A stretch of 64,000 nucleotides of DNA from Clostridia bacterium (GTDB taxonomy: Bacteria; Bacillota; Clostridia; UBA1212; UBA1255), in assembly GCA_017560225.1 (NCBI GenBank), contig JAFYOJ010000090.1, positions 1,386 through 65,385 on the forward strand, read 5' to 3'. The first letter of the stretch is position 1. Every line of letters begins with the position of its first letter. Positions 14,421-64,000 of the stretch are shown here, in pieces. Made by a program: the position numbers and the translations under genes. The notes below the pieces were generated by a model. The model was not told the DNA's origin and made no database searches. It was given only the letters and a program-made list of their open reading frames with translations.

Positions 14421-14434
14421 TGTCCTTACCTCCA

Positions 14435-35461: not shown

Positions 35462-35487
35462 CTATATTTCAACCTCCCTTCTGACCT

Positions 35488-37029: not shown

Positions 37030-37048
37030 GTACCTCTCCCAAAATGAT

Positions 37049-37138
37049 CTAACCGTCGTTATGGGCCGCAACCATCAGTGCCATTACAAAAACACCCATA
37101 AATCCGCCAATCAGAAGCCCACAAAAAAATTGTAACAT
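37049..37138 (-). CDS. Putative 29-aa hydrophobic micropeptide (MLQFFCGLLIGGFMGVFVMALMVAAHNDG)
   Basis: ATG preceded by GAGGTG RBS (6-nt spacer) in the cpsB-LRR intergenic region. Single predicted TM helix. Not in the ORF track (below the size cutoff). Confidence 0.3.
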   Translation of the reverse strand: MLQFFCGLLIGGFMGVFVMALMVAAHNDG

Positions 37139-39566: not shown

Positions 39567-40298
39567 TCAAGTAAACCATGCCCAAAAACTTTTAATTTCC
39601 TGCTTGGTTTTTTGGAAAAGATCAATCACCTTAAAACGTACGGTCACCCGATTGGTTTCTACCTTTTCCGGAAGGCTTACAGGCGTTTCGGTTGCTTCAG
39701 CTTCAGGCGCAGCCGTATTTTCCGGCACTCGGGCATTCACAAAACATAATTTCGGGAAAAGGACGCACCACCAGTTTCTACCGGCCGCCTCTCCAATTTC
39801 TACGCGGAGAGCCTGATAAACCCCCGCAGGCAAAGACCCACCTTCGTAGTCACGAGTAGGAAAATAGACTTCCTCCAGCCGCACAGACACAGGATAGTCG
39901 TAGCCCTCCTCACCAATACAGACGGCTGCCGCCTGAGAAAGAACCTCCGTATTTTCCGCTATGCGGGCTTTAGCTTCCTCCCGGGTCTTGCAGTCGGACA
40001 GCAATGTTTCCGACGCCGTCAACACACAATCCCGCACTTTTAATTTTAATGCCTGATCTGCAGCAGAATCACTGTTGGCAAGCACGTGAAGACGAAGCAC
40101 CTCTTCAGAAATGCCACGAAATTCCATTTCTGAATAGACGCAAAAACTCCAAACCACCACAAAAATACATGCCGCCACGGTAGCCATTATTTTCTTTCGC
40201 CGTTCTGTTTTTTGTTCTGTACAAGGGAAGGGAATAATTTCCATTTCCATTTTACATCGCCTCCTCATTCCAAGTTTCTCCCATTTTTTTGAATTCAT
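39567..40298 (-). CDS. spoIIR: Stage II sporulation protein R
   Basis: LRLHVLANSDSAADQALKLKVRD core motif of SpoIIR, with an N-terminal signal/TM segment. Confidence 0.8.
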   Translation of the reverse strand: MNSKKWEKLGMRRRCKMEMEIIPFPCTEQKTERRKKIMATVAACIFVVVWSFCVYSEMEFRGISEEVLRLHVLANSDSAADQALKLKVRDCVLTASETLLSDCKTREEAKARIAENTEVLSQAAAVCIGEEGYDYPVSVRLEEVYFPTRDYEGGSLPAGVYQALRVEIGEAAGRNWWCVLFPKLCFVNARVPENTAAPEAEATETPVSLPEKVETNRVTVRFKVIDLFQKTKQEIKSFWAWFT

Positions 40299-41350: not shown

Positions 41351-42016
41351 ATGTTGAAGTCTACATTTAAATCCATGCTTGCAGGCGGGCTGACAATCCT
41401 CTCCATTTTATCCCTTTGTGCTTGCAAGGCAGAAATTCCCACCGGAACGGAAGATGAGAACTTTGCACCGGTGAGCAGTGTTGCGGTCGGCACTGAAGAA
41501 ACGTCGGCGCTTTCCGGTAAAATGCATTTTCGAATCTACTACGCCAATGCCACCGGCACAAAATTGGCACCTGAAATAAAATTAACGGAATACAGCAAAG
41601 ATTTTCGCCATACCGATACCTTAGCGAAAGCTATGCTTTCCCAAATGTTAGTCCCTCCTGCCAATCAAAAACTGCAAAAAACTTTACCGGAGGGTACCAT
41701 TATCAATAGCGTCATTGCCGTAGGAAACTGCCTGACGGTAGATCTTTGCCAAGCATTTTACGATAACCTGGCTGCAAACACCAAAACCGCGCCACTGGTA
41801 CTGGCCTCCATTGTCACCACATTGACCGAATTGAAAGACATTACGTACGTTACTTTCTTGTGCGACGGGAAAACGCCCGCCATGTCCGGCAATTTCATCA
41901 AATTGACGCGAAACAGCGCCGTAGTGGCGGCCGCTTTGGAAATCACCACCTTGGCAGAAATCAATCAGGACGCAGTGGAAGCGGGCGCTTCCTGGGAAGA
42001 CGTGGTGTTGGAGTAA
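41351..42016 (+). CDS. GerMN-domain lipoprotein (sporulation/germination-associated)
   Basis: Lipobox LSLCAC. GerMN (germane) domain pattern: LPEGTIINSV...GNCLTVDLCQAFYDN...LVLASIVTTLTELKDITYVTFLCDGKT. Confidence 0.6.
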   Translation: MLKSTFKSMLAGGLTILSILSLCACKAEIPTGTEDENFAPVSSVAVGTEETSALSGKMHFRIYYANATGTKLAPEIKLTEYSKDFRHTDTLAKAMLSQMLVPPANQKLQKTLPEGTIINSVIAVGNCLTVDLCQAFYDNLAANTKTAPLVLASIVTTLTELKDITYVTFLCDGKTPAMSGNFIKLTRNSAVVAAALEITTLAEINQDAVEAGASWEDVVLE

Positions 42017-42037: not shown

Positions 42038-42655
42038 TTGCGTCCCACCGCGAATTCCTTTATACTGAAGCAAATACAGAAGGGAGTTTCGCCGTTGGAC
42101 GCAAATTTTTCCACAATCATACAAGAAGCCTTGCCCCAAACTGCCCACACCCCCCATCTTCTTCTTCGAAGTCGGGAGAACAGCGTGCAGTTATACACCA
42201 ACTATGCCTTGGTGACCGGCATTGCTCCGGAAATTTGTGCAGATACGTTCAACAGGCAAAGCAGCGTCGGAAAGGCCATAGCGCAGGGGGATTTTATTCA
42301 TTTTACCCTCTCCCAAACAGAACTCCAAAACACGCTGGCCACCATCGCATCGGCCTACCAACCGGCCCCCCCGGCACTTCCTGATGAGGTGGTAAAATAT
42401 CTGCAATATGTCATCACGGAACTAATCAAAACCTATCCCACCGCAGAAACAGCCAAGCCGTATACCCAAGAAGAACAAGACTTAGCCATCCTGCTCATTT
42501 ATATGGCGCAACGTTCCGAGAACAAACAAAAACGGCAACAAGAGCTTGCTGCTCGTATTGCCGCATTTCTGAAGAATATACTCTTTTCCAAAATTTCCGC
42601 CGACACCCAACTATTACTTCGGGCGGCCCACGTTATGCTTCAGCCAACTTACTGA
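42038..42655 (+). CDS. hypothetical protein (start uncertain; alternative TTG at 42095 with GAAGGGAG RBS)
   Basis: No internal ATG for about 150 codons. Converges on and overlaps the LMW-PTP 3' end by about 23 nt. Confidence 0.35.
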   Translation: MRPTANSFILKQIQKGVSPLDANFSTIIQEALPQTAHTPHLLLRSRENSVQLYTNYALVTGIAPEICADTFNRQSSVGKAIAQGDFIHFTLSQTELQNTLATIASAYQPAPPALPDEVVKYLQYVITELIKTYPTAETAKPYTQEEQDLAILLIYMAQRSENKQKRQQELAARIAAFLKNILFSKISADTQLLLRAAHVMLQPTY

Positions 42656-43103
42656 CCAGTACGCGAAGGGCTTGCTCAATCAGACCGGCACAACGGTCAT
42701 AGTCTTCTTCGTCCCCTCTGTAAGGATCTTCAATATCTTGCACGCCGGAAAGTCCGTCCTCTCCGTACACGTATTCCAACAAAGTATAAATCTTCTCCTC
42801 CGCCTCCGGATATGCCTCGATCAAAGTATGCTTCAAATCCATATCCATGGTCAGAATACAATCGCTCTCCTCTGCCAATTCCTCTGTCATAGGCTGCGCC
42901 TTATGTTTCTCCCCCTCAAGGTCATACAATCGAGCAAGCACGTCTACCGCTTCCTCTACTGCTTCATCATCTTCCACCGCAAAAATACCGGCAGATTGCA
43001 CGTCACAATCCAAATCAGCCTCTTTCAAAAGCATCTTCATCAGATACTCCGCCAAGAAACTCCGACACGTATTGGATGTACAAACAAAAAGAATATTATC
43101 CAA
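42633..43103 (-). CDS. Low-molecular-weight protein-tyrosine phosphatase
   Basis: C(X)5R P-loop CTSNTCRS and a DPY-like Asp loop. Start set to TTG giving LDNILFVC... (GGAAAGGGAAAGAG RBS); the track start is also TTG, 10 codons upstream, with no RBS. Confidence 0.75.
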   Translation of the reverse strand: MDNILFVCTSNTCRSFLAEYLMKMLLKEADLDCDVQSAGIFAVEDDEAVEEAVDVLARLYDLEGEKHKAQPMTEELAEESDCILTMDMDLKHTLIEAYPEAEEKIYTLLEYVYGEDGLSGVQDIEDPYRGDEEDYDRCAGLIEQALRVLVSKLAEA

Positions 43104-48164: not shown

Positions 48165-49553
48165 TTATGCCACTAATTCCACCCGTTCTTCCGAGCCTTC
48201 CACGGCGTCCACATAGATCATAAACGTATGGCCAAGACCGGTGCAACGAAATTCATAGAAATAATCTTCTCCGCCATAGCCGTTGTCCATATAACACAGC
48301 CGTACTTCTTCCACCGTTAATGCAGGGTTAATTTTAGATTGAGCCGCCTCTTGTGAAATCGTTTTGGTGCCTTGTTGATTTTCTCGGGCACAGTGATACA
48401 TAAAATAGGCGTAGGCGTCAAATCCAATCACTTCGCCGCTGCCGGATGCTACTTTGACCCGCACCCAATCGGGATAACAATAAACGCCATCCATCACGGG
48501 ACAGAAGGTAAGCAGCGTAGCACCGCCTAAATCTTCCGTTTGCACCAAGGCCATATTTTTCATCCCCAATGCTTTTAAGAAAGCGCTGCCGGACTCCTCT
48601 ACTTGCGCCGCAGACAATGCTCCTGCGGGCAATTCTTTATTATATAGCAAATCGCACAAAACGCCGCCTTGTTTGGTAAGGCTCACATAGGCCACCGTAT
48701 CGTCTTCTCGCGTCACTTCATAGCAAAGTAAATCGATGCCATTCATAGAAGTTTCCCCGGTGTAGCGCACTTGGGGCTTTTCTCCAAAGGCGTCATTAAA
48801 TATTTTACGAATGTGATCCGCCCCCTGCTCCTGTCCAACTACGTACCCTGTAAGGCCTTTTGGGGTCAAGTGTTTCATGTGGTCGGAAAATGGTCCATCA
48901 TATTCCACCACGGGATAATCCTGAAAAGGATCCGCCAAGAGTTCTTCCGTATCTTTTTCTATATTCTTCCAGCTGTAATGATTTTCCGTCACCCGAACCG
49001 CCAATTCTGAAAGCGCCGCACTTAAATCTAAGGAGTAGCCGTGCAGTTCTTTCAGTAAGGTGTAATTTTCTTCTGTGAAACCGGCCCAGCCTTTCTCCGT
49101 ATTCCCGCCACTGGAAGCCTCCACCAATTCATCCCCCACATTCACCTGTTGGCTCTTTAATTCGTCTGAAATCGCCGCATCCGCCCAGGCTTTCGCCAGG
49201 TCATCCACCTGAACAAGATAATTGGAAATTTTCGCCGAAACGTTGGCATCAATGGGCAGCAAGGCCATACTCCCCTCTGCGTAACTGCTGGCTCTCGCCG
49301 CTTCTTGCAGCATCCGTGCTGTTTGTTTAGCAGAGCCGGAAGCCATAGCTTTGAGCAAATATTCTTCTGATCGGGAAACCGCATAAGCCATATCCGACAA
49401 AGCGCGGTCATACTGCAGCATGAGTGTATTCCGTGTCTTTCGCTCCATACGAAGAGAAACTGCTACCGCAACCACTAAGCACAAACTGACACCCGCCAAA
49501 ATCCAAACCGATGCCAATAAAATCGTATATTTTTTCTTCTTCATAAAAATCAT
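48165..49553 (-). CDS. ypeB: Germination protein YpeB (PepSY-domain membrane protein)
   Basis: N-terminal TM. LMLQYDRALSDMAYAV matches the YpeB N-domain (B. subtilis ENNYQRAFHELTYQV). C-terminal PepSY-like repeats. Confidence 0.7.
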   Translation of the reverse strand: MIFMKKKKYTILLASVWILAGVSLCLVVAVAVSLRMERKTRNTLMLQYDRALSDMAYAVSRSEEYLLKAMASGSAKQTARMLQEAARASSYAEGSMALLPIDANVSAKISNYLVQVDDLAKAWADAAISDELKSQQVNVGDELVEASSGGNTEKGWAGFTEENYTLLKELHGYSLDLSAALSELAVRVTENHYSWKNIEKDTEELLADPFQDYPVVEYDGPFSDHMKHLTPKGLTGYVVGQEQGADHIRKIFNDAFGEKPQVRYTGETSMNGIDLLCYEVTREDDTVAYVSLTKQGGVLCDLLYNKELPAGALSAAQVEESGSAFLKALGMKNMALVQTEDLGGATLLTFCPVMDGVYCYPDWVRVKVASGSGEVIGFDAYAYFMYHCARENQQGTKTISQEAAQSKINPALTVEEVRLCYMDNGYGGEDYFYEFRCTGLGHTFMIYVDAVEGSEERVELVA

Positions 49554-54343: not shown

Positions 54344-54823
54344 CTAATGAACTTCTCTGTAAAATTTTACCTTTTTAACCCAAGTTCCCAGCAGGACCAG
54401 CCCCGCCGCCACCGCAAATCCGGCAAAATCCAGCCATACGTCCGCCAAACTACTGCCGCGCCCTGTAAAAAGCTGCAAAGTTTCATCCATGGCACCCACC
54501 AGAAAGCCGAAACAGAAGCAATGCGCCATCCAATGAAGTTCTATTTTCCTGCGCACCCAAAGCAGTAAAAAACATTCCAAACCCAGCGCAAAGAACTCCG
54601 CAAAATGACCCAGTTTTCGAACAAAATATTCGGTGATATTTTCCGCGCCGAACAAGGGTCCCAACAGCGGCTTCACAAGATTCTCCAGTAGCGCTTGACT
54701 CTTCTTAGACGAATCTTGGGGGCCTTCCAAAGAATGCCCCCAAATCACACACAATGTAATGACAATCAAAACGATCAAGATTGCCGTCCAAATATTTTGT
54801 TTCGTCCACTTACAGTGCTGCAT
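54344..54823 (-). CDS. VanZ-like family membrane protein
   Basis: VanZ-like hydrophobic pattern (...FVRKLGHFAEFFALG...). Overlaps the ald 3' end by about 14 nt. Confidence 0.55.
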   Translation of the reverse strand: MQHCKWTKQNIWTAILIVLIVITLCVIWGHSLEGPQDSSKKSQALLENLVKPLLGPLFGAENITEYFVRKLGHFAEFFALGLECFLLLWVRRKIELHWMAHCFCFGFLVGAMDETLQLFTGRGSSLADVWLDFAGFAVAAGLVLLGTWVKKVKFYREVH

Positions 54824-55922
54824 GAAGCTCCGTGTACGCCAAATCCAAGCTGGTGGCCACATTCTTGTTCACGCACTTGCCGCCGTAGATATTCACACCG
54901 TTTGCCAAACCTGCGCACTCGGAAACAGCTGCCTCCAAGCCCATCTCCGCAATCATCAAACCGTAGCGAATGGTTGCGTTGGCAAGCGCCACAGTAGAAG
55001 TATAAGGAACAGCACCGGGCATATTGCCTACACAGTAGTGTACAATGCCTTCTTCAATATAAACAGGATTGTCGTGGGACGTTACGCGAGAAGTCTCGCA
55101 GCAACCGCCCTGGTCGATGGCGATATCTACAATGACAGCGCCTTTCTTCATCAGTTTCAAATGCTCCTTGCGTACCAATTTCGGCGTAGCGGCACCGGGA
55201 ATCAAAACAGAGCCGATTACAAGATCTGCTTCCTTCAAAGACTTGCGAATATTGGCTTCCGTGCTGTACAAAGTGGTAACAGACGCGCCGAAGATATCTT
55301 CCAAATAAGCAAGACGATTGGCATTGACATCCAGCAAAGTTACCTGGGCGTCGCTACCTACCGCTGCCTTTGCCGCATAGGTACCGGCAATACCGCCGCC
55401 GATGATTACAATCTTACCCCGCTCTACACCAGGCACACCGCCAAGCAAAATACCGCGGCCGCCGTAGCTGCGCTCCAAATACTTGGCACCTTCCTGTACA
55501 GAAAGACGACCGGCAATCTGGCTCATGGGACGAAGACAAGGAAGATTGCCCTGCTCATCGGTAATGGTTTCAAAAGCAACGGCCTTTACCTGCTTCTCCA
55601 TCAAAGCCTTGGCCAATTCCGGATTGGCCGCCAAGTGCAAATACGTGTAAAGAATCTGGCCCGGTCTTAAATATTCAACCTCACAAGCCTCCGGTTCCTT
55701 TACCTTAACAATCATATCTGCAATGTCAAAAACTTCTTTCGGCGTAGCCAGAATCTTGGCACCCGCTTCTATATATTCTTCATCGGAAAAGCCTGCGCCT
55801 GCACCTGCACCGGTCTCTACATAGACGGTGTGCCCTTTTGCGGTATATGCAAGGACGTTATCCGGCGTCAAACCTACTCGATATTCGTGATTCTTCAATT
55901 CTTTTGTTGTACCAATAATCAT
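54810..55922 (-). CDS. ald: Alanine dehydrogenase
   Basis: Full-length AlaDH: N-terminal substrate domain, NAD Rossmann motif VIIGGGIAGTYAAKAA, and HYCVGNMPGAVP. Confidence 0.9.
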   Translation of the reverse strand: MIIGTTKELKNHEYRVGLTPDNVLAYTAKGHTVYVETGAGAGAGFSDEEYIEAGAKILATPKEVFDIADMIVKVKEPEACEVEYLRPGQILYTYLHLAANPELAKALMEKQVKAVAFETITDEQGNLPCLRPMSQIAGRLSVQEGAKYLERSYGGRGILLGGVPGVERGKIVIIGGGIAGTYAAKAAVGSDAQVTLLDVNANRLAYLEDIFGASVTTLYSTEANIRKSLKEADLVIGSVLIPGAATPKLVRKEHLKLMKKGAVIVDIAIDQGGCCETSRVTSHDNPVYIEEGIVHYCVGNMPGAVPYTSTVALANATIRYGLMIAEMGLEAAVSECAGLANGVNIYGGKCVNKNVATSLDLAYTELHAAL

Positions 55923-56023
55923 AAAGATTCCCCACTTTCTGTTCGGTTTATTTTACAACCCGTGAGATAAAAATACAATACTGTGTATAAAAAAAGTTAT
56001 AAACTCAACACAATGCCCTTGCG

Positions 56024-57187
56024 TTACAAACCCAACTCGTCTAATAACGCTTGCATCTCATCTGCTTTTTCCCGGGAAACATTATGATTGTACAACAATT
56101 CTCTCATAGACCTTTTGGCATGACCACAAAACACTAATTTAAACCACCGTCGAACCTGCATAACCGGTGTGAGCCACTTGTGTTTTTGAAGAATTGGATA
56201 ATGCCGCTTAATTAAATCATACGGAATCACAATTTTTGAAAAAGCGTATTGCAAACGCCCACCTAACTTTTGTTGGCGGAGAACAATTCTATTTTGCAGC
56301 GTTCCGTAAACACCTCCGGAAAGAATAAAGTATTCCATCTTTTTCGTGCAGGCATTACCGGGCTGATTATCAAACCACATTTCGCCAAGAAGTGTTGCAT
56401 TTCTGGCAAATTTACCCACCCCACCTTTTTCAAGGAGTTCCTCATACTTATCTAAATCCTTTTCAGGAAGATGATTCAATATCCACAAATCTAATACCGA
56501 GCGAATACCACAACCGCCGTTTCGAAAATGCTTCGACATATGAACAACATGATAAAAATAGAACAAATCAGCCGGCATTTCCATTTGATATAACCATCCC
56601 GGACGAGCAGTTGCCACATCCCAAAGATTATCAAAAATCCCTGCTATTTTTCCGGTATAATCATCTTCTATAAGGAGAAAGTGCAATTCAATGTGATAGC
56701 CGTTTTGTGAATACAGAGCCACGTCGTGTAAACATCGTGAGCGTTCAACAAATTGCAACTCACCAACTAAAATGGAAACAGCATTTTCCAAATCTTCAAC
56801 TTTCACTAATATGTCAAGATCGCTACAAGTTCGCATCCACGGTTCCGGATAATAGTTTTGCATCACAGCACCTTTTAACGGAATAAATGAAATTTTTGCC
56901 TTTTCAAAGGCATTACAAATACGCACCCGTTCATACTGTTGATTTTCATGTCGATATATGGCCCGAAAAATATACTTTTGCAGCCGAGATTTGCTTTCAT
57001 CATTTACCAAACCATTTTTTATTGCGCCTAACGCTACCAAGTGTGCCAGATCGTGTTTTTCTGCCAAGCGAATAATGTTTGAAAGCAAGTTTTCAGATGC
57101 AATTTGCTTGCTTTCGCTATTCATCGGTTTATTTTGAATAACTGATTGAAGAATTGAAAAAAATATATCTCGCTCTTTCTCGTTCAT
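56024..57187 (-). CDS. Uncharacterized nucleotidyltransferase (NTP_transf_5-like)
   Basis: About 390 aa with the DLDILV nucleotidyltransferase Asp motif, a family common in polysaccharide loci. Start at ATG M24 (AAAGGAAG RBS). First gene of the AT-rich island. Confidence 0.55.
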   Translation of the reverse strand: MNEKERDIFFSILQSVIQNKPMNSESKQIASENLLSNIIRLAEKHDLAHLVALGAIKNGLVNDESKSRLQKYIFRAIYRHENQQYERVRICNAFEKAKISFIPLKGAVMQNYYPEPWMRTCSDLDILVKVEDLENAVSILVGELQFVERSRCLHDVALYSQNGYHIELHFLLIEDDYTGKIAGIFDNLWDVATARPGWLYQMEMPADLFYFYHVVHMSKHFRNGGCGIRSVLDLWILNHLPEKDLDKYEELLEKGGVGKFARNATLLGEMWFDNQPGNACTKKMEYFILSGGVYGTLQNRIVLRQQKLGGRLQYAFSKIVIPYDLIKRHYPILQKHKWLTPVMQVRRWFKLVFCGHAKRSMRELLYNHNVSREKADEMQALLDELGL

Positions 57188-57240
57188 AGTAATGAACTTC
57201 CTTTCAACAATACATTCACGCGCAATCCGTATGGTAAATT

Positions 57241-58347
57241 CTACTGTTCCAAACAACGCATAAAGTTTTCTTTATTTTCTTTGGCAGTTGTAGTAGGTCT
57301 TCCCAAATCAGCTCTAGCGCCAATAGCACATTTAATTTCTATCAACGTAAGATTATTTTTGTTTTTTGCTTGCCAAAGCGCTTTATCCAGTTCGTCAAAA
57401 TTATCTACAGAAACAACGTTAGAATAGCCGCAACCTTTTGCAATAGCACAAATATCAATTTTGGATGCCACCGTAGGCATTCCGCCAACCGTTTCATGGG
57501 CGCCGTTGTTGATAACAATGTGTACTATGTTTTCAGGAGCCATTGATCCTAATAGAGCAACTGAACCCATATGCATTAACAACGCTCCGTCACCATCAAT
57601 ACACCAAATCTTTTTTTGGGGATTTTGCAATGCAATGGATAGCGCAATAGAGGAACTATGTCCCATAGAACCCACGGTAAGAAAATCATACTGATGGCCT
57701 TGACCATTGATCTCCCGAATTTCAAACAATTCTCGCGATGCTTTTCCCGTGGTAGATATAACAGGATCTGTATCCGACACGGCAACAATGTGTCGAATAA
57801 TCTCCTCACGAAGCATTTTATTGTCATTATTATACGAAACTTTCAAATCACATTCTAATGCGCCTTTCTTAACAACAAAAGCAACCTGTTTCCCCGATTC
57901 CAATAAAGGCTTCCATTGTTCAAGTTGCATAACAACTTCACTTTCGGTTGTTTCCTTACTGATAACAAAAGTACGAATATCCATATCTTCCAAAAGTTTT
58001 ATCGTAACTTCTCCCTGATAAATGTGTTGCGGTTCATCATGAACACCCGGTTCACCTCTCCAGCCAACAAAAAAGATACAAGGAATCCCGTACACTTTAT
58101 CATTCATAAGGGAAGCAACGGGATTAATAATATTGCCAATACCGCTATTTTGCATATAAACCACCGGAATCTTTCCTGTAGACAAATAATAACCTGCCGC
58201 AAGCGCTACGCAATTTCCTTCATTGGCTGCAATAATATGTTGTTTGCCAATACCGTAAGTAGCCATCAAATAGTTGCATAACGGTTTCAGTTGAGAATCC
58301 GGCACGCCTGTAAAAAAATCATAATTCTTTAAAAAATCTAATTTCAT
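57241..58347 (-). CDS. ppd: Phosphonopyruvate decarboxylase (TPP-dependent)
   Basis: Fused alpha/beta TPP-enzyme of about 370 aa with ThDP motif CIDGDGALLMHMGS...N. Sits immediately downstream of a PEP mutase gene. Confidence 0.8.
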   Translation of the reverse strand: MKLDFLKNYDFFTGVPDSQLKPLCNYLMATYGIGKQHIIAANEGNCVALAAGYYLSTGKIPVVYMQNSGIGNIINPVASLMNDKVYGIPCIFFVGWRGEPGVHDEPQHIYQGEVTIKLLEDMDIRTFVISKETTESEVVMQLEQWKPLLESGKQVAFVVKKGALECDLKVSYNNDNKMLREEIIRHIVAVSDTDPVISTTGKASRELFEIREINGQGHQYDFLTVGSMGHSSSIALSIALQNPQKKIWCIDGDGALLMHMGSVALLGSMAPENIVHIVINNGAHETVGGMPTVASKIDICAIAKGCGYSNVVSVDNFDELDKALWQAKNKNNLTLIEIKCAIGARADLGRPTTTAKENKENFMRCLEQ

Positions 58348-58348
58348 T

Positions 58349-59464
58349 TCATTTCACGTCCAATTTTAAAATTAATATATATAAATCATATAAATTTTGT
58401 GTTTCAAGTTTAACAGGATTATTATTCAATCGTGTAAGGTTAACAGATGCAGACAAAACAGGTAAGTCATCCACATGTGCTTTGCACGGAGCTTCCAAAC
58501 CTATTTCGTTGAGTAAATCCGAAAATTTGCAAACCGCCTCATCCACATTTTCACACCCTAATGACTTAGCAATCGCTTCAAAGGTGCTTGCCAAATAAGA
58601 TTTTCCTCTGCGGTCGATACACAAATCCAGATTTTGATGCATATACGCCCATATATAAGGCAAACAAATTGCAACTGCATGACCATGCGGAAGCCCATAC
58701 AGTGACGTGATTTTATAGCTCATAGCATGCGCTGATGTCGTTTGTGTAATATTAATCGCCTGTCCTGCATAGTTGGCGGCCAAAAATATTTCGGTTGTTG
58801 CATGGTCATCGTTTTTAAAAAGATAGGCCTTGTAATTCTTCATAATTGTTTCAACGGCTTTTTGGGAAAGCTTTTTACTTGTTTCCGTAGAATTAACCGA
58901 CCACCATGACTCAATCCCCTGACAAAGAGCATCCATTAACGTACACGTTTTTTGGTAAAATGGAAGTGTTTTTAACACACTAGGCTCAAGAATAGCATAC
59001 TCCGGTATCAAACTTTGGTGGGTAACAGACTGCTTTTCACCGTTATAATAAATAACTGCATATCTTGTTGATTCGCTTCCTGTACCCGCTGTTGTAGGAA
59101 TTGCAATCAGTGGAATCCCTGTATCTTTATATTCCTGTTGCAAAAAGTTGGTTGTTTCATCCATTTTGCAATACAGCTTGATGCATTTCGCAACGTCAAT
59201 ACTACTTCCGCCACCAACCGCCAAAAGCGTATCACATCCTTCAGCATTGAACAAATGCACCCCTTTTGCTACATCTGCATATTGAGGATTCGGTGTAAAG
59301 TCATCAAAAAAAACAATTGGAATTTGAATGTTGTCAATTTGTTCTTTAATGGGTAAGAACTGATAAGAACAGCTGCAAACAATCATAACCTTTCTTGCCC
59401 GCACCGTATTCAAAATATGTTTAAGTTGTTGTATACTCCCGTTTCCTGCAATAACTTTTTGCAT
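58349..59464 (-). CDS. Iron-containing (group III) alcohol dehydrogenase; predicted phosphonoacetaldehyde reductase
   Basis: GGGSSIDVAKCI NAD/Fe-ADH motif and His-rich metal site (HAMSY...HGHAVA). AAGGAG RBS. Function inferred from its position between pepM and ppd. Confidence 0.65.
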   Translation of the reverse strand: MQKVIAGNGSIQQLKHILNTVRARKVMIVCSCSYQFLPIKEQIDNIQIPIVFFDDFTPNPQYADVAKGVHLFNAEGCDTLLAVGGGSSIDVAKCIKLYCKMDETTNFLQQEYKDTGIPLIAIPTTAGTGSESTRYAVIYYNGEKQSVTHQSLIPEYAILEPSVLKTLPFYQKTCTLMDALCQGIESWWSVNSTETSKKLSQKAVETIMKNYKAYLFKNDDHATTEIFLAANYAGQAINITQTTSAHAMSYKITSLYGLPHGHAVAICLPYIWAYMHQNLDLCIDRRGKSYLASTFEAIAKSLGCENVDEAVCKFSDLLNEIGLEAPCKAHVDDLPVLSASVNLTRLNNNPVKLETQNLYDLYILILKLDVK

Positions 59465-59477
59465 AGCGGTACGCTCC

Positions 59478-61487
59478 TTATTCCTCAGGAATTAACGTAA
59501 TAATTTCTTTAATCGACATACACAAATCATCCGCTTCTTTTGCTCTATGGTTGGTTAAAATGATTTTAGCCACATTCTGCATGGCGGGGAATCCGCTCCT
59601 GGTAAGCTGATTTGCATAAATTACAACATTAACACCCCGTTGTTTCCATTCATCTTCCGTCACCGTATTAAATGATGTGGGCACAACTACAATAGGTGTA
59701 TGTGCGTCCTGTTGCCTAAATCTTTCTACAAACGTAAAGATTTCCGTAGGGTCTTTCTTTCGGCTATGAATCATAATGGCATCTGCACCAGCTTTTACAA
59801 ACGCAAAAGCACGTTCAAGTGCATCCTCCATTCCTCGTTCAAGAATCAAACTCTCAATACGGGCACATATCATAAATTCTTTCGTTTTTTGCGCCTTTTT
59901 TCCTGCCTGAATCTTTGCACAGAAATTTTCAATACTATCCTGTGTCTGTTCAACCTCCGTACCAAACAGGGAGTTCTTCTTCAAGCCCGTTTTGTCCTCA
60001 ATAATAACCATAGATACACCCATTCGTTCTAAGGTTTTAACTGTATAAACAAAATGTTCGGTCAATCCGCCTGTATCTCCATCAAAAATAATAGGTTTTG
60101 TGGTAACTTCCATAATATCGTCAATTGTGCGGAATCGAGAAGTCATATCCACAAGCTCAATATCCGGTTTGCCTTTGGCTGTACTATCGCAAAGAGAAGA
60201 AACCCACATAGCATCAAATTGATACGTTTTACCATCTTGAAGCACAGTTGTTTTCTCCGCAATAAGACCGGTAAGACCGCTATGGGCCTCAATTGCAGTA
60301 ACCGTTTTTTTCATATTGATCAATTTTTTCAATCTGCCACGGCGTACATCCGGCATGGCTAATTGTGCACGACTCAATTTGTCCAAATCAGCATATTTAG
60401 CATCTTTGGAATAAGGGTATTCTACAAGTGTTCCACCATATTCTGCAAGAACTTTGGTGACCTCATCTCGAATTGGTTTTTGAAAGCCTTCTTTCCAATC
60501 ATCACCGTGAACAACGTAGGTGGGTTTCATAGTTTTAAGATTTTCCGCATAGCTCAGTTGTTTCTGTTCAATAACCTGATATACACCATTAATGTTTTCA
60601 ATCAAAGATTTTCTTTCCTCGTATGGAAGCAACGGAAAGCGCTTGTAACTGGATACCGCTTCATCAGACAACACACCAATGGTCAACCGTCCAAGTTTCG
60701 CTGCTTTCTTAATAATTGCAATATGACCGCTGTGGATCATATCCGTGGAAAAGCACATATAAACTGTGCGATTTTCCACTTCCGCCAATTTAGTCTTCAC
60801 AACAGCTAAATCTTCCGGGGTATCAATCTCCGTACACAACCGATTGCCAACGTCATACGCCATAATCTCACATTGATCAGAAATCTCGTTAAACGCAACT
60901 TCTGCATAGCATTTTCGGTTATTAGATTCACAGTACTCGCAAATCTTATCTAACCAAACATTCCAATCCTGACTATTTAACTTGTACAATGCCTGCGCTT
61001 CCATAGCGTCGTTAAAAAATTCAACACCGATTTTTTCAACACGGCCATCGTGAACAACTGCCTTAAAATCTTTCTCCGGCAAAGCACAAGTAGAGCTGAC
61101 CTTCATGCAGCTTTTTTCAAAAGCCAACAGTTCATCAAGAACAGATGCTTCAAAAACCAAATCGCCATGCATCAACACAATATCTTCATTCCGAAGATAT
61201 TCTTTTGCACAGTAAATAGAATAAATATAATTTGTCTGGTCGTAAATCGGATTATTCACAAATGTATACTGTAGTTTCAGATTTAACGAATGACAGTAAT
61301 TTACAAGGATTTCATTATAATAGCCTGTTGTCATAACAACGTCGGTAACGCCGGCATCCGCAAGCAATTTAAGCTGGCGGCTTAATATTGTCTCTTTGGC
61401 AGATATTTCCGTCATACATTTTGGATGTTCAGAAGTAAGCACACCCATACGATGACCTAAACCGGAATTTAAAATCAGCGCCTTCAT
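59478..61487 (-). CDS. pepM: Tri-domain fusion: LicC/MobA-like nucleotidyltransferase + HxGH cytidylyltransferase (TagD/CCT-like) + phosphoenolpyruvate mutase
   Basis: Residues 1-230: MKALILNSGLGHRMG (NTP_transferase G-x-G-x-R). Residues about 240-370: CFSTDMIHSGHIAIIKKA (HxGH cytidylyltransferase). Residues about 380-669: PEP mutase motifs FDGDTGG, IIEDKTGLKKNSL, GADAIMIHSRKKDP. Confidence 0.85.
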   Translation of the reverse strand: MKALILNSGLGHRMGVLTSEHPKCMTEISAKETILSRQLKLLADAGVTDVVMTTGYYNEILVNYCHSLNLKLQYTFVNNPIYDQTNYIYSIYCAKEYLRNEDIVLMHGDLVFEASVLDELLAFEKSCMKVSSTCALPEKDFKAVVHDGRVEKIGVEFFNDAMEAQALYKLNSQDWNVWLDKICEYCESNNRKCYAEVAFNEISDQCEIMAYDVGNRLCTEIDTPEDLAVVKTKLAEVENRTVYMCFSTDMIHSGHIAIIKKAAKLGRLTIGVLSDEAVSSYKRFPLLPYEERKSLIENINGVYQVIEQKQLSYAENLKTMKPTYVVHGDDWKEGFQKPIRDEVTKVLAEYGGTLVEYPYSKDAKYADLDKLSRAQLAMPDVRRGRLKKLINMKKTVTAIEAHSGLTGLIAEKTTVLQDGKTYQFDAMWVSSLCDSTAKGKPDIELVDMTSRFRTIDDIMEVTTKPIIFDGDTGGLTEHFVYTVKTLERMGVSMVIIEDKTGLKKNSLFGTEVEQTQDSIENFCAKIQAGKKAQKTKEFMICARIESLILERGMEDALERAFAFVKAGADAIMIHSRKKDPTEIFTFVERFRQQDAHTPIVVVPTSFNTVTEDEWKQRGVNVVIYANQLTRSGFPAMQNVAKIILTNHRAKEADDLCMSIKEIITLIPEE

Positions 61488-61489
61488 AA

Positions 61490-62248
61490 TTATACATTTC
61501 CTTTCTTTTCATTTGATTGATCTTTACGAATATAATTGTTTTTCCTCGGGGTCATATAATCTCCATAGAGCGACGTAAGAAACATATCATATTCTGCTAT
61601 ACATTGATATTGTTGGTCTTCAAAAGGAAGTTCAACCGTTTTCTGCATCATAGTTTTAGGATAAGCATCATAATACGGAGGTGCAAACACTGTTACGTAT
61701 TCAGAATCACTCCAACCATATTGTGTCGAATATGTACGATATACTTTGTTCGTATATGTATCCGGAACAAATATTGCAAACATCTTTGTAAAAAATAACA
61801 ATATCGGTTTCTTAGTAGCGTGAAAAGGTTTGTATTTAGCAGAGAAGAATTGATATAATCTGCGAGTCTTTTTCAAAAAGCGTATACGTTCTTGTGCATC
61901 ATTCGGTGCGCCAATTAAACCATAGATATCAATATGACAATCATAGTGTGACTGACCTTCAAGAATCAAGCGTTCATGACACGAGCCAAAACCTTTTTCA
62001 ACACCGGGAACGCAAAGATGATAATGACTCTTTTTGTCACAACGAATGGCATTTCGTAATTTCAGCAAATCGTCGTGCCGCACAAAAATATCGACATCTA
62101 AGTCCCAAGGGATAAAGCCTTTTTCTCGTACCGCACCCAAAAGAGTTCCATACGCAAGAGAATACCAAATATCGTTCTCTTTGCATACGCGGTGTAGATA
62201 ATTCAGCATTTGTAACAAGTCATCTTTTTGATCATTTTGGGCTATCAT
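61490..62248 (-). CDS. licD: LicD-family phospho-head-group transferase
   Basis: YSLAYGTLLGAVREKGFIPWDLDVDIFV is the LicD family signature. Start at ATG M26 (AAAAGAGGA RBS). Confidence 0.8.
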   Translation of the reverse strand: MIAQNDQKDDLLQMLNYLHRVCKENDIWYSLAYGTLLGAVREKGFIPWDLDVDIFVRHDDLLKLRNAIRCDKKSHYHLCVPGVEKGFGSCHERLILEGQSHYDCHIDIYGLIGAPNDAQERIRFLKKTRRLYQFFSAKYKPFHATKKPILLFFTKMFAIFVPDTYTNKVYRTYSTQYGWSDSEYVTVFAPPYYDAYPKTMMQKTVELPFEDQQYQCIAEYDMFLTSLYGDYMTPRKNNYIRKDQSNEKKGNV

Positions 62249-62268
62249 GCAAATCCTCTTTTCTGTTT

Positions 62269-63396
62269 TTACTGTAGCAAATCCCGAAACAACGCGTCTA
62301 ACTTTGCTACAACCTCGCCCCAACCATATTGTTGGGCTATAATTTCAGATTTTTTACTATACGCGTCCCACAAAGTATTGTCATCTGCAATTTTTGTCAT
62401 AGCATTGCAGACACTTTGGCTATCAGAAGGCGGAAAAATAATTCCGGAATCCTGTACAACACTGGCAATATTTCCAACATCCGAAGAAAGTACGGGCGTT
62501 GCAGTTGCCATTGCTTCAATAATAACTTTTGGAAATCCCTCTGTGACAGATGTCAGAACAAAAGCACGCGATTGATTCAACTCGTTTGCAATGACTGATC
62601 TATTTTGTATGCCGCAAAACTCAACTGCATGGGAAATTCCAAATTGCTCGCACATCGCACAAAGTTCTTCTCTTCGTTCTCCATCACCAATCATTTTTAA
62701 TGTATAATCTTGATGCTGCTCATAGAACTTTGCAAAGCCTTCCAATAAGATATGTTGAGCTTTTTGCCACCGCAAACTGGCCACGTGAATAAATTGTTTT
62801 TTTCTCGGCAGTTTATTATTTTGAAACACGGTGAGATCCACTCCATTTCCAACACAAACAACCGGTTTTGAATAGGAACGACCTAGTGGCAGCAAATCAA
62901 TCATATTTTCTCCGACTGTAACAACTGCGTCCGGAATCCTTAGTATATACTTTCCAATGAGCGGTTTTTTTTTCATGCGCAATGCATCGGAACCATGTAA
63001 ACTCATTACAATTTTGGTACCGTATTTTTTTCTTGCATAGATACCACATTTAATTGTCATGGGCGAAACCACGTGAATAACATCCGGCTTAAAAGCATCA
63101 ATCAGGGGATGCACACTTTTCGCAAATTGATTATACGCATTATTTTTCCGAATAAACTTTAGAACTCGCGCAAAAATATTCTCGTCATATTTGCCCAGCG
63201 GCACATTATCGAGTTCCACTTCAACAACTTCGACGCCTTCTCGATTTTGAAACATCGTACCATCTCGTTTACCGGTTACAATCATTTCATCATAGTCAGA
63301 AAACATCGAATAATAGTACGCATGCAGACCCGCTCCCGGTAGTGTATCCCGCGGGTACGTAGCACTAACGCGCATCACTTTCAATTTCTTTTCCAT
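62269..63396 (-). CDS. Glycosyltransferase family 4
   Basis: GT-B fold with the E-x7-E region EGFPKVIIEAMA. Start at ATG M3 (GAGGT RBS). Confidence 0.8.
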   Translation of the reverse strand: MEKKLKVMRVSATYPRDTLPGAGLHAYYYSMFSDYDEMIVTGKRDGTMFQNREGVEVVEVELDNVPLGKYDENIFARVLKFIRKNNAYNQFAKSVHPLIDAFKPDVIHVVSPMTIKCGIYARKKYGTKIVMSLHGSDALRMKKKPLIGKYILRIPDAVVTVGENMIDLLPLGRSYSKPVVCVGNGVDLTVFQNNKLPRKKQFIHVASLRWQKAQHILLEGFAKFYEQHQDYTLKMIGDGERREELCAMCEQFGISHAVEFCGIQNRSVIANELNQSRAFVLTSVTEGFPKVIIEAMATATPVLSSDVGNIASVVQDSGIIFPPSDSQSVCNAMTKIADDNTLWDAYSKKSEIIAQQYGWGEVVAKLDALFRDLLQ

Positions 63397-63423
63397 AGTC
63401 AACCTCTAATGTCCAAAGTAATG

Positions 63424-64000
63424 TTATCTATCCAATAAATCCATAAACATCTCTGTAATATAGATGTACCACTTTTGGTCCGGTGTTAAATCTTTTCCGT
63501 ATCCCAGATTAAACTCGGGACGTGTTGCACCTTGGTAGTCTCGCATCCATTGTTCCAATGCACGTGGGAGCGGAAGTTTTTTAGGCTGCCCCCATCCAGG
63601 ATATAATTTACTAAACACTTCACGGACTAAATATTTATTTTCTCCGCTTCTAATTCTATCTAAATCCAACGGTATATCTAATTTGGTAGTAAGATAAGGA
63701 GCCACGAAGTCAACACCAGCCAAAGAACACGAATTGATATAAGAATTGGGCGATTGACGAAGATGAATATCATTCAGAAAACCATATACATCCATACGAC
63801 CGTCTTTATAATGTCGCTCATACGGTTCTCGAATGATCACGCCATTTTTCAATGCTTTCGTGGGGTCAACAAAATTATGATATTCTATATATTCATCCAA
63901 CTGAAACTCTCTGCAAAGTTGAATACTGTGTCCACCGTAAATAATATCTGCGGTCTCTCCAAAAATCAGTTTTTCATATCCAGCTTTCCGTGCAATTAAT
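63424..64000 (-). CDS. Asparagine-synthetase-like amidotransferase, C-terminal part (ORF open to window end)
   Basis: Reading frame continues upstream of the track Met to position 64000 with no stop. IFGETADIIYGG resembles the AsnB LSGEGADELFGGY region. Confidence 0.5.
   Translation of the reverse strand, partial: LIARKAGYEKLIFGETADIIYGGHSIQLCREFQLDEYIEYHNFVDPTKALKNGVIIREPYERHYKDGRMDVYGFLNDIHLRQSPNSYINSCSLAGVDFVAPYLTTKLDIPLDLDRIRSGENKYLVREVFSKLYPGWGQPKKLPLPRALEQWMRDYQGATRPEFNLGYGKDLTPDQKWYIYITEMFMDLLDR

Follow-up and report, generated by a model that had tools for sequence, protein, structure and literature searches.

A predicted 2-hydroxyethylphosphonate cassette in a low-GC surface-polysaccharide locus beside ald in a gut Clostridia genome

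Introduction

LicD and LicC are classically phosphocholine enzymes. The pneumococcal Lic pathway, which places phosphocholine on a Wzx/Wzy-type teichoic acid, has in common with the locus described here a LicC-fold cytidylyltransferase and LicD, and pneumococcal LicD takes the head group from a cytidine nucleotide and places it on a lipid-linked repeat of the glycan, as is proposed below. A glycan bearing 2-hydroxyethylphosphonate (HEP) was reportedly described from Glycomyces, by Yu et al. in 2014. Two sources (PMC8942020, PMC13576164) cite the HEP-containing exopolysaccharide of Stackebrandtia nassauensis. No HEP-glycans other than these two are known to have been shown experimentally; they share with our locus a PhpC-type route and HEP esterified to a polysaccharide, both being predicted from the genes here.

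The Pnt clusters of Treponema denticola, Atopobium rimae and Olsenella uli (Rice et al., 2019, PMC6697681) share with our locus a PepM–nucleotidyltransferase fusion, phosphonopyruvate decarboxylase (Ppd), a LicC-fold cytidylyltransferase and LicD-like or glycosyltransferase neighbours. Each of them also has a pair of nucleotidyltransferases, of which one is fused to Ppm and the other encoded close by. For phosphonoglycans, Rice et al. (2019) proposed CMP activation followed by LicD-type transfer onto a glycan of the cell surface, and the same logic is predicted for our locus. The Streptomyces fosfomycin enzymes Fom1, Fom2 and FomC likewise provide a cytidylyltransferase (CyTase)–PepM fusion, Ppd and an Fe-dependent alcohol dehydrogenase (Fe-ADH), and their route passes through HEP and then CMP-HEP, as predicted here.

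Gene Content and Proposed Pathway

The window, the whole 64,000-nucleotide stretch that was analysed, ends in a cluster of seven genes, six complete and one truncated at the window end; all seven lie on the minus strand, and every intergenic gap is below 110 nt. The first-pass annotation had described eight co-directional genes; the common direction was confirmed and the count was corrected to seven. Its listed gene order is the reverse of transcription, which runs from the AsnB-like gene to the NTP_transf_5 gene and on toward ald (alanine dehydrogenase), and where it had PepM followed by Ppd, Fe-ADH comes between the two (PepM, then Fe-ADH, then Ppd). Gaps of 1–13 nt separate the LicD, fusion, Fe-ADH and Ppd genes. 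The domain calls were reproduced by Pfam and NCBIfam profile searches, that of Asn_synthase only on the full-length protein.

The cut gene (63424..64000, minus strand) encodes a 344-aa Asn_synthase-like protein, of which the last 191 codons lie in the window, and runs to the equivalent of position 64458. The part in the window gave no Pfam or NCBIfam match, and the full protein, read from the extended contig (L001 6384-7418), matched PF00733 at 54.7 bits. This match is limited to AsnB model positions 253-373; the full 344-aa protein therefore has no glutaminase domain, and the earlier term amidotransferase was an overstatement. The next gene encodes a 375-aa GT4 glycosyltransferase (62269..63396, minus strand; PF00534, PF13692, PF13439), whose NCBIfam matches to EPS and LPS glycosyltransferases were all sub-threshold. 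The last gene of the locus encodes a 387-aa NTP_transf_5 protein (56024..57187, minus strand; PF14907, 133.6 bits) without a match in the NCBIfam search. NTP_transf_5 was present in 13 of 81 loci with the phosphonate cassette and goes with the polysaccharide locus, not specifically with the phosphonate genes.

The low-GC block was followed past the window on the identical metagenome contig and is at least 14.9 kb long. The extension carries genes for Wzx, Wzy, a second LicD, a TagD-like enzyme, another GT4 and a TviC-like epimerase, which point to a Wzx/Wzy-type polysaccharide; the TagD-like gene adjoins the second LicD gene. Wzx and Wzy are located just past the window end. No priming phosphoglycosyltransferase was seen in the part of the locus on the contig, because the contig ends within the locus. 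The coupling of a LicD/GT4 glycan module to phosphonate genes is supported by domain matches and extension genes. The proposed phosphonate-decorated glycan or teichoic acid could be sharpened to a predicted Wzx/Wzy-type polysaccharide with 2-HEP as its head group. The description of the host as a spore-former from a gut sample also agrees with the SpoIIR, YpeB, Germane and SpoVE-type genes in the window, and the nearest relatives are rumen and faecal MAGs.

We consider it reasonably likely (probability about 0.7) that these genes make up the promoter-distal half of a Wzx/Wzy-type surface-polysaccharide locus with a three-gene HEP cassette, at a conserved site by ald and most likely placed there by locus replacement. 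From the observed families, motifs, gene order and co-occurrence we infer each catalytic step and the final product as follows. The PepM domain would convert PEP to phosphonopyruvate, Ppd would irreversibly decarboxylate this to phosphonoacetaldehyde, and Fe-ADH would reduce the latter to HEP. The Fom1-type CyTase domain, possibly with the LicC/PntC-type N-terminal domain, would form CMP-HEP from HEP and CTP. GT4 enzymes would build a lipid-linked repeat unit, the adjacent LicD would attach the hydroxyethylphosphonyl group at one of the sugar hydroxyls of this unit, Wzx would flip the unit and Wzy would polymerise it.

Phosphonate Core Enzymes and the Triple Fusion

The 669-aa protein (59478..61487, minus strand) is a fusion of a LicC/PntC-fold nucleotidyltransferase, a Fom1-type cytidylyltransferase and PepM, matched in Pfam by NTP_transf_3, CTP_transf_like and PEP_mutase. 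Its PEP mutase domain (aa 376-669; 59478..60362, minus strand) scored 404.7 bits against the TIGR02320 equivalog model (cut-off 319.55) and matched the PDB PEP mutases 1m1b and 5unc with E values of about 1e-37. The motif EDKTGLKKNS at 497-506 is kept in 69-75 of 75 homologues, and the defining residues E497, D498, K499, N505 and S506 in 74-75 of 75. The CPEP mutase, methylisocitrate lyase and phosphonopyruvate hydrolase models reached 36.4, 91.3 and 140.6 bits, respectively, and the better fit to isocitrate lyase or carboxyvinyl-carboxyphosphonate mutase that had been contemplated earlier was not found.

Ppd (368 aa; 57241..58347, minus strand; TPP_enzyme_N/C) scored 474.5 bits against the TIGR03297 equivalog model (cut-off 312.5). 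The sulfopyruvate decarboxylase subunit models (114.6 and 71.8 bits) and acetolactate-synthase-type decarboxylase models (at most 45.7 bits) stayed far below their own cut-offs; the Ppd model wins over these alternative assignments of the gene, and pepM is present. In 65 of 81 loci, the fusion gene has a Ppd family member as its neighbour. With PepM and Ppd both above equivalog cut-offs, the earlier call of C-P bond biosynthesis was upheld.

The Fom1-type cytidylyltransferase domain (aa 239-375; 60363..60773, minus strand; PF01467) gave the top PDB match of the whole fusion, the Fom1 CyTase domain 5x3d (E 1.2e-40, aa 239-361), compared with only 3e-6 for TagD (1coz). Its HSGH motif at 252-255 is kept in 71-75 of 75 homologues, and the histidines and glycine of this motif in 74-75 of 75. 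By its likeness to Fom1, this domain is predicted to make CMP-HEP. In the N-terminal LicC/PntC-fold domain (aa 1-238; 60774..61487, minus strand; PF12804, PF00483), G9-x-G11-x-R13...P22-K23 is kept in 74-75 of 75 homologues. The AF2 model of this domain (pLDDT 81.9, pTM 0.84) had LicC 1jyk and PntC-AEPT 6pd2 as top Foldseek matches (TM 0.74-0.80). Its substrate is probably also a phosphonate head group.

LicD and Predicted Head-Group Transfer

The LicD-family phosphotransferase (252 aa; 61490..62248, minus strand) matched PF04991 at 92.6 bits (cut-off 22.6), and its gene stops 2 nt before the start of the fusion gene. Of the 46 well-flanked cassette loci, 28 encode a CDP/CMP-dependent transferase of the LicD or TagF family no farther than 10 kb away, and the remaining 18 have no such relative in that range. 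LicD is predicted to move the HEP group from CMP-HEP onto the glycan. It is unlikely, though conceivable, that this LicD, the N-terminal LicC-like domain or both serve phosphocholine or glycerol phosphate, with HEP attached otherwise or not to a glycan at all. Such a role would fit the classical substrate of both families, the sole NCBIfam match of LicD, a cholinephosphotransferase model below its cut-off, and the presence of a TagD-like enzyme and a second LicD in the locus; moreover, the LicDs near cassettes in other genomes are merely 20-33% identical to this one. However, licA (choline kinase) and licB (transporter) are absent from the locus, the LicD gene all but touches the fusion gene, the TagD-like gene beside the other LicD makes a natural second pair, and the N-terminal domain is without the acidic residue that contacts a cationic head group. 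With two LicDs and three nucleotidyltransferase domains in the cluster, these pairings are tentative.

Composition and Origin of the Locus

The shift to AT-rich sequence after ald noted in the first-pass annotation was borne out, and the GC and GC3 values below support its claim of foreign composition. The GC content is 0.466 in window positions 1-55922 and 0.387 in 55923-64000, and the lowest 8078-nt block inside 1-55922 does not fall below 0.440. GC3 is 0.476 ± 0.028 in 33 backbone genes (minimum 0.435), 0.30-0.357 in the six complete cluster genes of the window and 0.28-0.384 in seven further extension genes, so that all cluster genes lie below the backbone minimum. In 1-kb windows the switch is abrupt, from 0.508 at ald to 0.390 in the adjoining kilobase. 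The boundary was placed in the spacer that separates the stop of the NTP_transf_5 gene from the start of ald (55923..56023), where the GC switch coincides with the end of nucleotide similarity to a relative, L090 (ald 96% identical at the protein level); this similarity covers pnp through ald and ends at window position 55995. A search of the boundary for a terminator-like site and a tRNA found neither.

At the same site, two close relatives (ald 96% and 93% identical) hold other polysaccharide genes, with none for phosphonates. Both of these loci end in an NTP_transf_5 gene beside ald, and these positional counterparts are only 34-41% identical to the gene here. The region therefore looks like a replaced variable surface-polysaccharide locus, not a demonstrated mobile island, and the low-GC version most likely arrived when the locus was replaced. 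That the block is instead a classical integrative mobile island is decidedly improbable. The compositional break at ald is sharp, the cassette occurs in three phyla at 74-83% identity, and an integrase could lie at the far border beyond the contig. Against this, there is no tRNA in the window or extension, no integrase or transposase among the 13 cluster genes and no visible flanking repeat, and the relatives hold other polysaccharide loci at the same junction, each with its divergent NTP_transf_5. Reading past 64 kb, as had been suggested, lengthened the block and reached neither a border nor an integrase or tRNA.

Predicted Product

The Fe-ADH (371 aa; 58349..59464, minus strand; PF00465, PF25137) is the cluster's sole candidate for the step after Ppd. 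Its best NCBIfam model was Phn_Fe-ADH TIGR03405 at 165 bits, under the 423.7 cut-off. All 66 cassette homologues share H246-x3-Y250-x9-H260; the residue at the Y250 position is reported to be a strictly conserved Tyr in PhpC and Phe in sulfoacetaldehyde reductases (PMC13576164). Fe-ADH is thus a predicted phosphonoacetaldehyde reductase, PhpC/FomC-like, giving 2-HEP. No 2-aminoethylphosphonate (AEP) transaminase was found within 15 kb, and no class-V aminotransferase among the called genes covering most of the 77.7-kb contig portion. This absence, together with a PhpC-like Fe-ADH between PepM and Ppd, makes HEP, not AEP, the predicted product.

It is very unlikely that the product is AEP or another derivative, made through a transaminase encoded elsewhere, with the Fe-ADH acting on an unrelated sugar or alcohol. 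Across ppm neighbourhoods, 56% are predicted to go through AEP and 8.5% through HEP (PMC8942020), and the lactaldehyde-reductase and ErcA models score nearly as well on the Fe-ADH as its sub-threshold best model. On the other hand, besides the lack of a class-V aminotransferase among the called genes and the PhpC-type Tyr, 66 of 81 loci have Fe-ADH placed between PepM and Ppd, the CyTase domain is similar to the HEP-specific domain of Fom1, and the N-terminal domain has His107 aligned to the amine-binding Glu104 of the AEP-specific Tde-PntC. The nearest multi-domain relatives of that domain are fused to Fe-ADH in 41 of 51 cases and to an aminotransferase in none. A small, diffusible, fosfomycin-like natural product in place of a glycan decoration is exceedingly improbable, since the cassette does hold Fom1-, Fom2- and FomC-like enzymes but the 15-kb cluster lacks a B12-radical-SAM methyltransferase (Fom3), HppE (Fom4), FomD hydrolase and resistance kinase, and its neighbours, here and in other loci, are polysaccharide genes throughout.

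Comparison With Known Systems

At least 591 species genomes, from Bacillota, Bacteroidota and one spirochaete, carry the three-gene cassette, and the fusion, Fe-ADH and Ppd genes are found as a set in 65-66 of 81 loci. In the 80 other loci, neither ald nor rpsO nor pnp lies near the cassette. The cluster type, triple fusion included, is already inventoried (PMC6697681, PMC8942020), with 42 cases of the same fusion counted by Rice et al. (2019). The HEP cluster is a solid yet fairly ordinary find, of a kind catalogued before.

Compared with the Pnt clusters, which make AEP and have PntC fused to or beside an AEP transaminase, the locus has an Fe-ADH branch predicted to lead to HEP, a His at the amine-binding position and both nucleotidyltransferases fused to PepM in one protein. 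Compared with the fosfomycin route, it has no Fom3, Fom4 or FomD, and its fusion carries an extra N-terminal LicC-fold domain beyond Fom1. Since polysaccharide genes surround the cassette, CMP-HEP would serve here as the final donor, whereas it is a transient intermediate in the fosfomycin route. In contrast to the pneumococcal Lic pathway, the locus is predicted to synthesise its head group de novo, as a C-P compound, and has no choline kinase or transporter. Stackebrandtia and Glycomyces, to which the locus is likened by their descriptions, are actinomycetes, whereas the present genome is an anaerobic gut Clostridia MAG that combines the triple fusion with LicD.

Composition and gene content of the low-GC region

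In 2-kb windows, the G + C content was 0.43-0.51 over the first 56 kb and 0.38-0.40 in the remaining sequence (56-64 kb). Positions 55923-64000 had a total G + C content of 0.387 compared to 0.466 for positions 1-55922, where the lowest block of the same length was not under 0.440. GC3 was 0.476 ± 0.028 (minimum, 0.435) in 33 long backbone genes and 0.30-0.357 in the six complete genes of the region, all under the backbone minimum. The shift to AT-rich sequence after ald, which had been described in the first-pass annotation, was thus borne out by computation.

Seven genes, not the eight previously claimed, were counted in this region, all on the minus strand and tightly packed with gaps of 1-101 nt. 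In transcription order, they encode a partial Asn_synthase-like protein (63424..>64000), a GT4 glycosyltransferase (62269..63396), a LicD protein (61490..62248), a 669-aa fusion of NTP_transf_3, CTP_transf_like, and PEP_mutase domains (59478..61487), an Fe-ADH (58349..59464), a TPP enzyme (57241..58347), and an NTP_transf_5 protein (PF14907; 56024..57187), which is the last gene before ald (54810..55922). Pfam agreed with every earlier domain call except that of the partial last ORF, which had no match inside the window. The finding of the first-pass annotation is real, and its interpretation as phosphonate genes coupled to glycan decoration was largely correct. A sharper reading of the gene content is that of a likely 2-hydroxyethylphosphonate (HEP)-type phosphonoglycan locus, with CMP-HEP as the probable donor and LicD as the probable transferase.

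Identification of the predicted phosphonate pathway

The C-terminal domain of the fusion scored 404.7 bits against the PEP mutase equivalog TIGR02320 (cut-off, 319.55), compared to 140.6 bits for phosphonopyruvate hydrolase, 91.3 bits for methylisocitrate lyase, and 36.4 bits for carboxyvinyl-carboxyphosphonate (CPEP) mutase. Its identity as PepM was therefore upheld against rivals of the isocitrate lyase superfamily. The motif EDKXXXXXNS is the PepM-specific criterion of Rice et al. (2019; PMC6697681); the fusion carries EDKTGLKKNS at aa 497-506, and the defining E, D, K, N, and S were kept in 74-75 of 75 homologs. The TPP enzyme, in which both TPP domains are present, scored 474.5 bits against the equivalog TIGR03297 (cut-off, 312.5). 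The scores of the rival models were 114.6 bits for the sulfopyruvate decarboxylase beta subunit (cut-off, 221.5), 71.8 bits for the other subunit, and at most 45.7 bits for acetolactate synthase-type enzymes. By these scores, the product of 57241..58347 is a phosphonopyruvate decarboxylase (Ppd), as first proposed, and not an enzyme of either rival type.

The top NCBIfam model of the Fe-ADH was the phosphonate-associated TIGR03405 at 165.2 bits, which is far below the cut-off of 423.7 and does not set it apart from ErcA (158) or lactaldehyde reductase (151). A Tyr four residues past the first metal-binding His has been used as a criterion for PhpC, with Phe in sulfoacetaldehyde reductases (PMC13576164). 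The Fe-ADH contains H246-A-M-S-Y250-x9-H260, with H246, Y250, and H260 assigned by spacing and not by alignment to a PhpC sequence, and this arrangement was invariant in all 66 homologs adjoining related fusions. The Fe-ADH is predicted to be an NAD(P)H-dependent phosphonoacetaldehyde reductase with HEP as its product, an identification less decisive than those of PepM and Ppd.

The cluster contained no class-V aminotransferase, and none was detected among the called genes that were examined elsewhere in the window. Li and Horsman (2022; PMC8942020) separate PhpC-type (HEP) from 2-aminoethylphosphonate (AEP) neighborhoods, and in their scheme this absence assigns the locus to the PhpC type and not to the AEP type. 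A fosfomycin-type small-molecule cluster would be expected to encode Fom3 (B12 radical SAM), Fom4 (HppE), and FomD, none of which was present among the 13 genes of the cluster and its extension beyond the window.

Nucleotidyltransferase domains of the triple fusion

When the whole 669-aa fusion was compared with the PDB, the best match was the CyTase domain of Fom1 (5x3d; E value, 1.2e-40; aa 239-361), with TagD reaching an E value of only 3e-6. In the Pfam layout, PF01467 (aa 249-346) is followed by PEP_mutase (aa 386-643), which places the CyTase directly upstream of PepM. The CyTase motif HSGH is located at aa 252-255, and H252, G254, and H255 were kept in 74-75 of 75 homologs. The Fom1 domain is described, in the citation of Cho et al. 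(2017) by PMC6697681, as converting HEP and CTP to CMP-HEP.

The N-terminal 238 aa matched LicC (1jyk; E value, 1.7e-9) and Tde-PntC (6pd1; E value, 3.3e-5) in the PDB. An AlphaFold2 model of this domain (pLDDT, 81.9; pTM, 0.84) had LicC 1jyk (TM, 0.76/0.79) and PntC-AEPT 6pd2 (TMq, 0.74-0.80) as its top Foldseek matches, and IPCT (inositol-phosphate) and sugar-1-P nucleotidyltransferases ranked behind them. Head-group cytidylyltransferases of the PntC/LicC type (PF12804) share the signature GXG(T/S)RX4-8PK with catalytic Arg and Lys (PMC6697681). The corresponding segment of the N-terminal domain is G9-L-G-H-R13-x8-P22-K23, in which G9, G11, R13, P22, and K23 were kept in 74-75 of 75 homologs; the T/S position was occupied by His in 40 of the 75. 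Judging from these conserved residues, both nucleotidyltransferase domains of the fusion look catalytically intact. The architecture itself is already known, since Rice et al. (2019) tallied 42 triple fusions, 2.8% of Ppm proteins (PMC6697681).

In Tde-PntC, Glu104 hydrogen-bonds the amine of AEP, and its counterpart in LicC is given as Asp105 (PMC6697681). Glu104 aligns with His107 of the N-terminal domain, so that the acidic amine-contact residue is missing, and H107-G108-D109 was invariant in both alignments (A2 and A3). This substitution indicates that the domain is not an AEP-type PntC. An uncharged head group, for example HEP, would fit this position.

The fusion partners of the N-terminal domain were surveyed in a 50%-identity representative library. 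Among the 150 representatives nearest to this domain alone, 51 exceeded single-domain length; 41 of these carried an Fe-ADH, four CTP_transf_like, three LicD, one PepM, and none an aminotransferase. A 616-aa NTase-Fe-ADH fusion adjoins a CyTase-PepM fusion, Ppd, a TagF-like protein, and a sulfatase-family protein, and a stand-alone 239-aa relative lies in the gene order Ppd, NTase, CyTase-PepM, Fe-ADH. These two contexts demonstrate that the same five domains recur under differing fusion patterns. The PntC domain of Tde1415 is joined to the transaminase supplying its substrate, AEP. By analogy, fusion to the HEP-forming reductase suggests that this NTase subfamily may act on a substrate of the HEP pathway. 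A Gtp1/Gtp2-like route to CDP-2-glycerol was considered for the NTase/Fe-ADH pairing and set aside because both NTase-relative contexts examined were PepM/Ppd clusters; it could still apply to some of the 41 fusions. The presence of two nucleotidyltransferases in one cluster is not new either, since Rice et al. reported three AEP clusters in which one NTase is fused to Ppm and another lies one or two genes away (PMC6697681).

Two further arrangements were observed among loci with relatives of the N-terminal NTase. On the short contig of locus L092 (234-5764), a 912-aa chain combines the same NTase subfamily with Fe-ADH and LicD and adjoins a 931-aa Stealth-family protein. A small APS_kinase-like P-loop protein is encoded among the phosphonate genes of L087-L089 (9911-10429) and L093 (5347-5853), both of which represent HEP-type clusters; the cluster in the window has no such gene. 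In the Campylobacter phosphoramidate pathway, such a kinase 3'-phosphorylates the cytidine diphosphoramidate donor. By analogy, the clusters with the APS_kinase-like protein might modify CMP-HEP likewise.

Polysaccharide genes surrounding the cassette

An identical copy of the fusion protein is recorded on L001, a 77.7-kb ENA metagenome contig and the only long one found to carry these genes. Its sequence matches the window without a difference along the 14,523 bases that the two share. This contig runs 6.8 kb beyond the window end at a G + C content of 0.35-0.40 and stops still inside low-GC polysaccharide genes, which extends the low-GC block to at least 14.9 kb and 13 genes. Its extension encodes a TviC-like UDP-GlcNAcA 4-epimerase (L001 121-1095; 317 bits, below the cut-off of 760), a second LicD (288 aa) directly upstream of a TagD-like cytidylyltransferase (137 aa; L001 3517-4799, equivalent to window 66043-67325), and the full Asn_synthase-like protein (344 aa; L001 6384-7418), together with a GT4 glycosyltransferase, a Wzy_C polymerase (PF04932), and a Wzx flippase (PF01943). 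With Wzx, Wzy_C, and two GT4 genes present, the low-GC block looks like a Wzx/Wzy-type heteropolysaccharide locus. No priming phosphoglycosyltransferase was seen before L001 ends inside the locus.

The LicD protein downstream of GT4 (61490..62248) matched PF04991 over profile positions 1-227 of 227 with 92.6 bits (cut-off, 22.6). The best model of the TagD-like protein was glycerol-3-phosphate cytidylyltransferase (95.8 bits, below the cut-off of 165.4). The position of the second LicD beside the TagD-like enzyme suggests that the polysaccharide may bear a second head group, for example glycerol phosphate, in addition to HEP. The locus would then contain two head-group modules, one formed by the TagD-like enzyme and its LicD and the other by the fusion and its LicD.

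The Asn_synthase-like protein had been taken for an AsnB-like amidotransferase. It covers only positions 253-373 of 517 in the AsnB model (52.3 bits; cut-off, 267.1) and comprises the synthetase core only, without the N-terminal glutaminase domain; the amidotransferase call was therefore not sustained. Together, the TviC-like epimerase and the AsnB-like enzyme raise the possibility that the repeat unit includes an amidated hexuronic acid.

Genes for Wzz (PF02706), a CpsD-like P-loop protein of the tyrosine-kinase type, and a CpsB/CapC phosphatase lie in DNA of normal G + C content approximately 17 kb from the locus, with a low-molecular-weight phosphotyrosine phosphatase a few kb beyond. The whole set is located at window 37198-39495 and 42633-43040 and may comprise chain-length and export regulators for the polysaccharide locus. 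Two surface-adhesin features were also noted: a 793-aa protein that combines a thioester domain (TED) with a SpaA prealbumin-like domain (4621-7002), and a 513-aa pAdhesive_15/LRR protein followed by a sortase (34484-37071).

A probable variable locus beside ald

The site of the low-GC block was compared with that of two relatives, L090 and L097, in which ald is 96 and 93% identical, respectively. Nucleotide similarity to L090 spans pnp, rpsO, and ald and ends at window 55995, inside the 101-nt spacer. At the same junction, L090 has NTP_transf_5 preceded by Epimerase_2, Epimerase/Cupin, CTP_transf_like, and Polysacc_synt_2 genes at a G + C content of 0.42-0.50, and no phosphonate genes were found there. 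L097 has a different gene set, including CTP_transf_3 and HMGL-like genes, again terminating in NTP_transf_5. The three NTP_transf_5 copies (window 56024-57187, L090 3922-5061, and L097 6263-7432) are only 34% (window and L090), 41% (window and L097), and 35% (L090 and L097) identical, compared to 93-96% for ald. On these identities, NTP_transf_5 is the apparent hypervariable terminal gene of the polysaccharide locus. A more remote ald homolog (86%) was found in an unrelated gene context.

The region had initially been regarded as a horizontally acquired island. Acquisition is supported by G + C content, GC3, and the different genes in L090 and L097. A mobile island is not supported: no tRNA was found in the window or the extension, and no integrase or transposase among the 13 cluster genes. 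Promoter-like and terminator-like sites showed no excess over shuffled controls. The far border lies beyond the end of L001, and the contigs of L090 and L097 likewise break inside the locus. The best reading of these sequences is a conserved chromosomal site adjacent to ald that would hold a hypervariable surface-polysaccharide locus, of which the version described here appears compositionally foreign.

The host, named "MAG: Clostridia bacterium" as the source of NCBI protein MBR5280141.1, had been described as a spore former. This is backed by sporulation and germination genes for SpoIIR (39567-40250), Germane (41351-42016), YpeB (48165-49553), and an FtsW/RodA/SpoVE-family protein (19238-20422). 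At window 11748-16198, a NuoF-like FMN/4Fe-4S protein (587 aa) adjoins an 895-aa Fer2/Fer4/pyridine-nucleotide-disulphide oxidoreductase protein, with a 2Fe-2S thioredoxin-like gene beside the pair; these genes resemble the NADH-binding module of an electron-bifurcating enzyme.

Distribution and history of the cassette

A one-genome-per-species scan with the fusion as the query found relatives in at least 591 genomes, of which the best 80 were analyzed in detail. The fusion was 74-83% identical over its full length in these 80, which include Oscillospiraceae, Lachnospiraceae, Christensenellaceae, Ruminococcus, Prevotella, and one Sphaerochaetaceae MAG and are mostly rumen or fecal MAGs. Cultured carriers were [Clostridium] symbiosum ATCC 14940, Ruminococcus sp. 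FC2018, and Bacteroides cutis Marseille-P4118. The cassette of fusion, Fe-ADH, and Ppd occurred together in 65-66 of 81 loci (the window and the best 80 of at least 591), with the gene order fusion, Fe-ADH, Ppd in Bacillota; in Bacteroidales, Ppd precedes Fe-ADH after the fusion. Of the 46 loci with sufficient flank, 28 had a transferase of the LicD or TagF family within 10 kb. NTP_transf_5 was present in only 13 of the 81 cassette loci, and ald, rpsO, and pnp were near none of the other 80.

Among these best 80 of at least 591 (L005-L084), Ppd identity was bimodal, with 61-79% in Bacillota-type loci and approximately 50% in Bacteroidales, and Fe-ADH identity was approximately 44-62% throughout. 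These differing patterns indicate that the cassette genes do not have one simple shared history. The G + C content of the fusion gene ranged from 0.35 to 0.62 and correlated with that of its own locus (r = 0.86), so many copies appear to be long-resident and adapted to host composition. Mean identity across 75 homologs was 86% for PepM, 74% for the CyTase, and 69% for the N-terminal domain, and the 74-83% identity of the fusion also reflects strong constraint, especially on PepM. On both grounds, recent transfer was rejected as the sole cause of the cross-phylum conservation.

Comparison with known phosphonate systems

The decoration of surface glycans with phosphonates is considered the main use to which bacteria put C-P biosynthesis, and only a handful of such glycans have been chemically demonstrated. 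The HEP glycans in the literature cited here are all actinomycete exopolysaccharides. The locus described in this study cleanly exemplifies the HEP branch in an anaerobic Firmicute of the gut, and the same three-gene cassette extends across Bacillota, Bacteroidota, and one spirochete, mostly in gut and rumen MAGs. The cultured carriers make the role of the triple fusion and the need for two nucleotidyltransferases testable in culture.

We consider it unlikely, and raise only as a speculation, that the two NTases perform distinct activation steps with HEP as not only a terminal decoration but a bridging or polymerized unit and, separately, that cassette-bearing bacteria are a candidate source of environmental HEP. 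If the former were true, HEP, which has its phosphonate and a free hydroxyl at opposite ends, could form a C-P-bonded chain resembling teichoic acid. The LicD or TagF-type enzymes found beside the cassette in many genomes would assemble this chain. If HEP glycans are really made, the carriers could supply HEP that other gut and rumen bacteria can degrade. This would offer a possible tie to the work of Piazza et al. (2026), who drew attention to the unexplained abundance of HEP in the environment and inferred an unidentified source from widespread HEP catabolic clusters.

Our literature search found no work on PntC, CMP-HEP, or phosphonoglycans newer than the papers of 2019 and 2022. Published accounts already cover the logic of the pathway, the architecture of the fusion, and the link to LicD and glycosyltransferases (PMC6697681; PMC8942020), and the known picture of phosphonate biosynthesis is unchanged by this locus. 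Compared to these known systems, what is modestly new is the breadth of the cassette across phyla in gut and rumen bacteria, cultured strains included, and, for the N-terminal NTase subfamily, its link to Fe-ADH by fusion and its His-for-Glu replacement at the head-group position.
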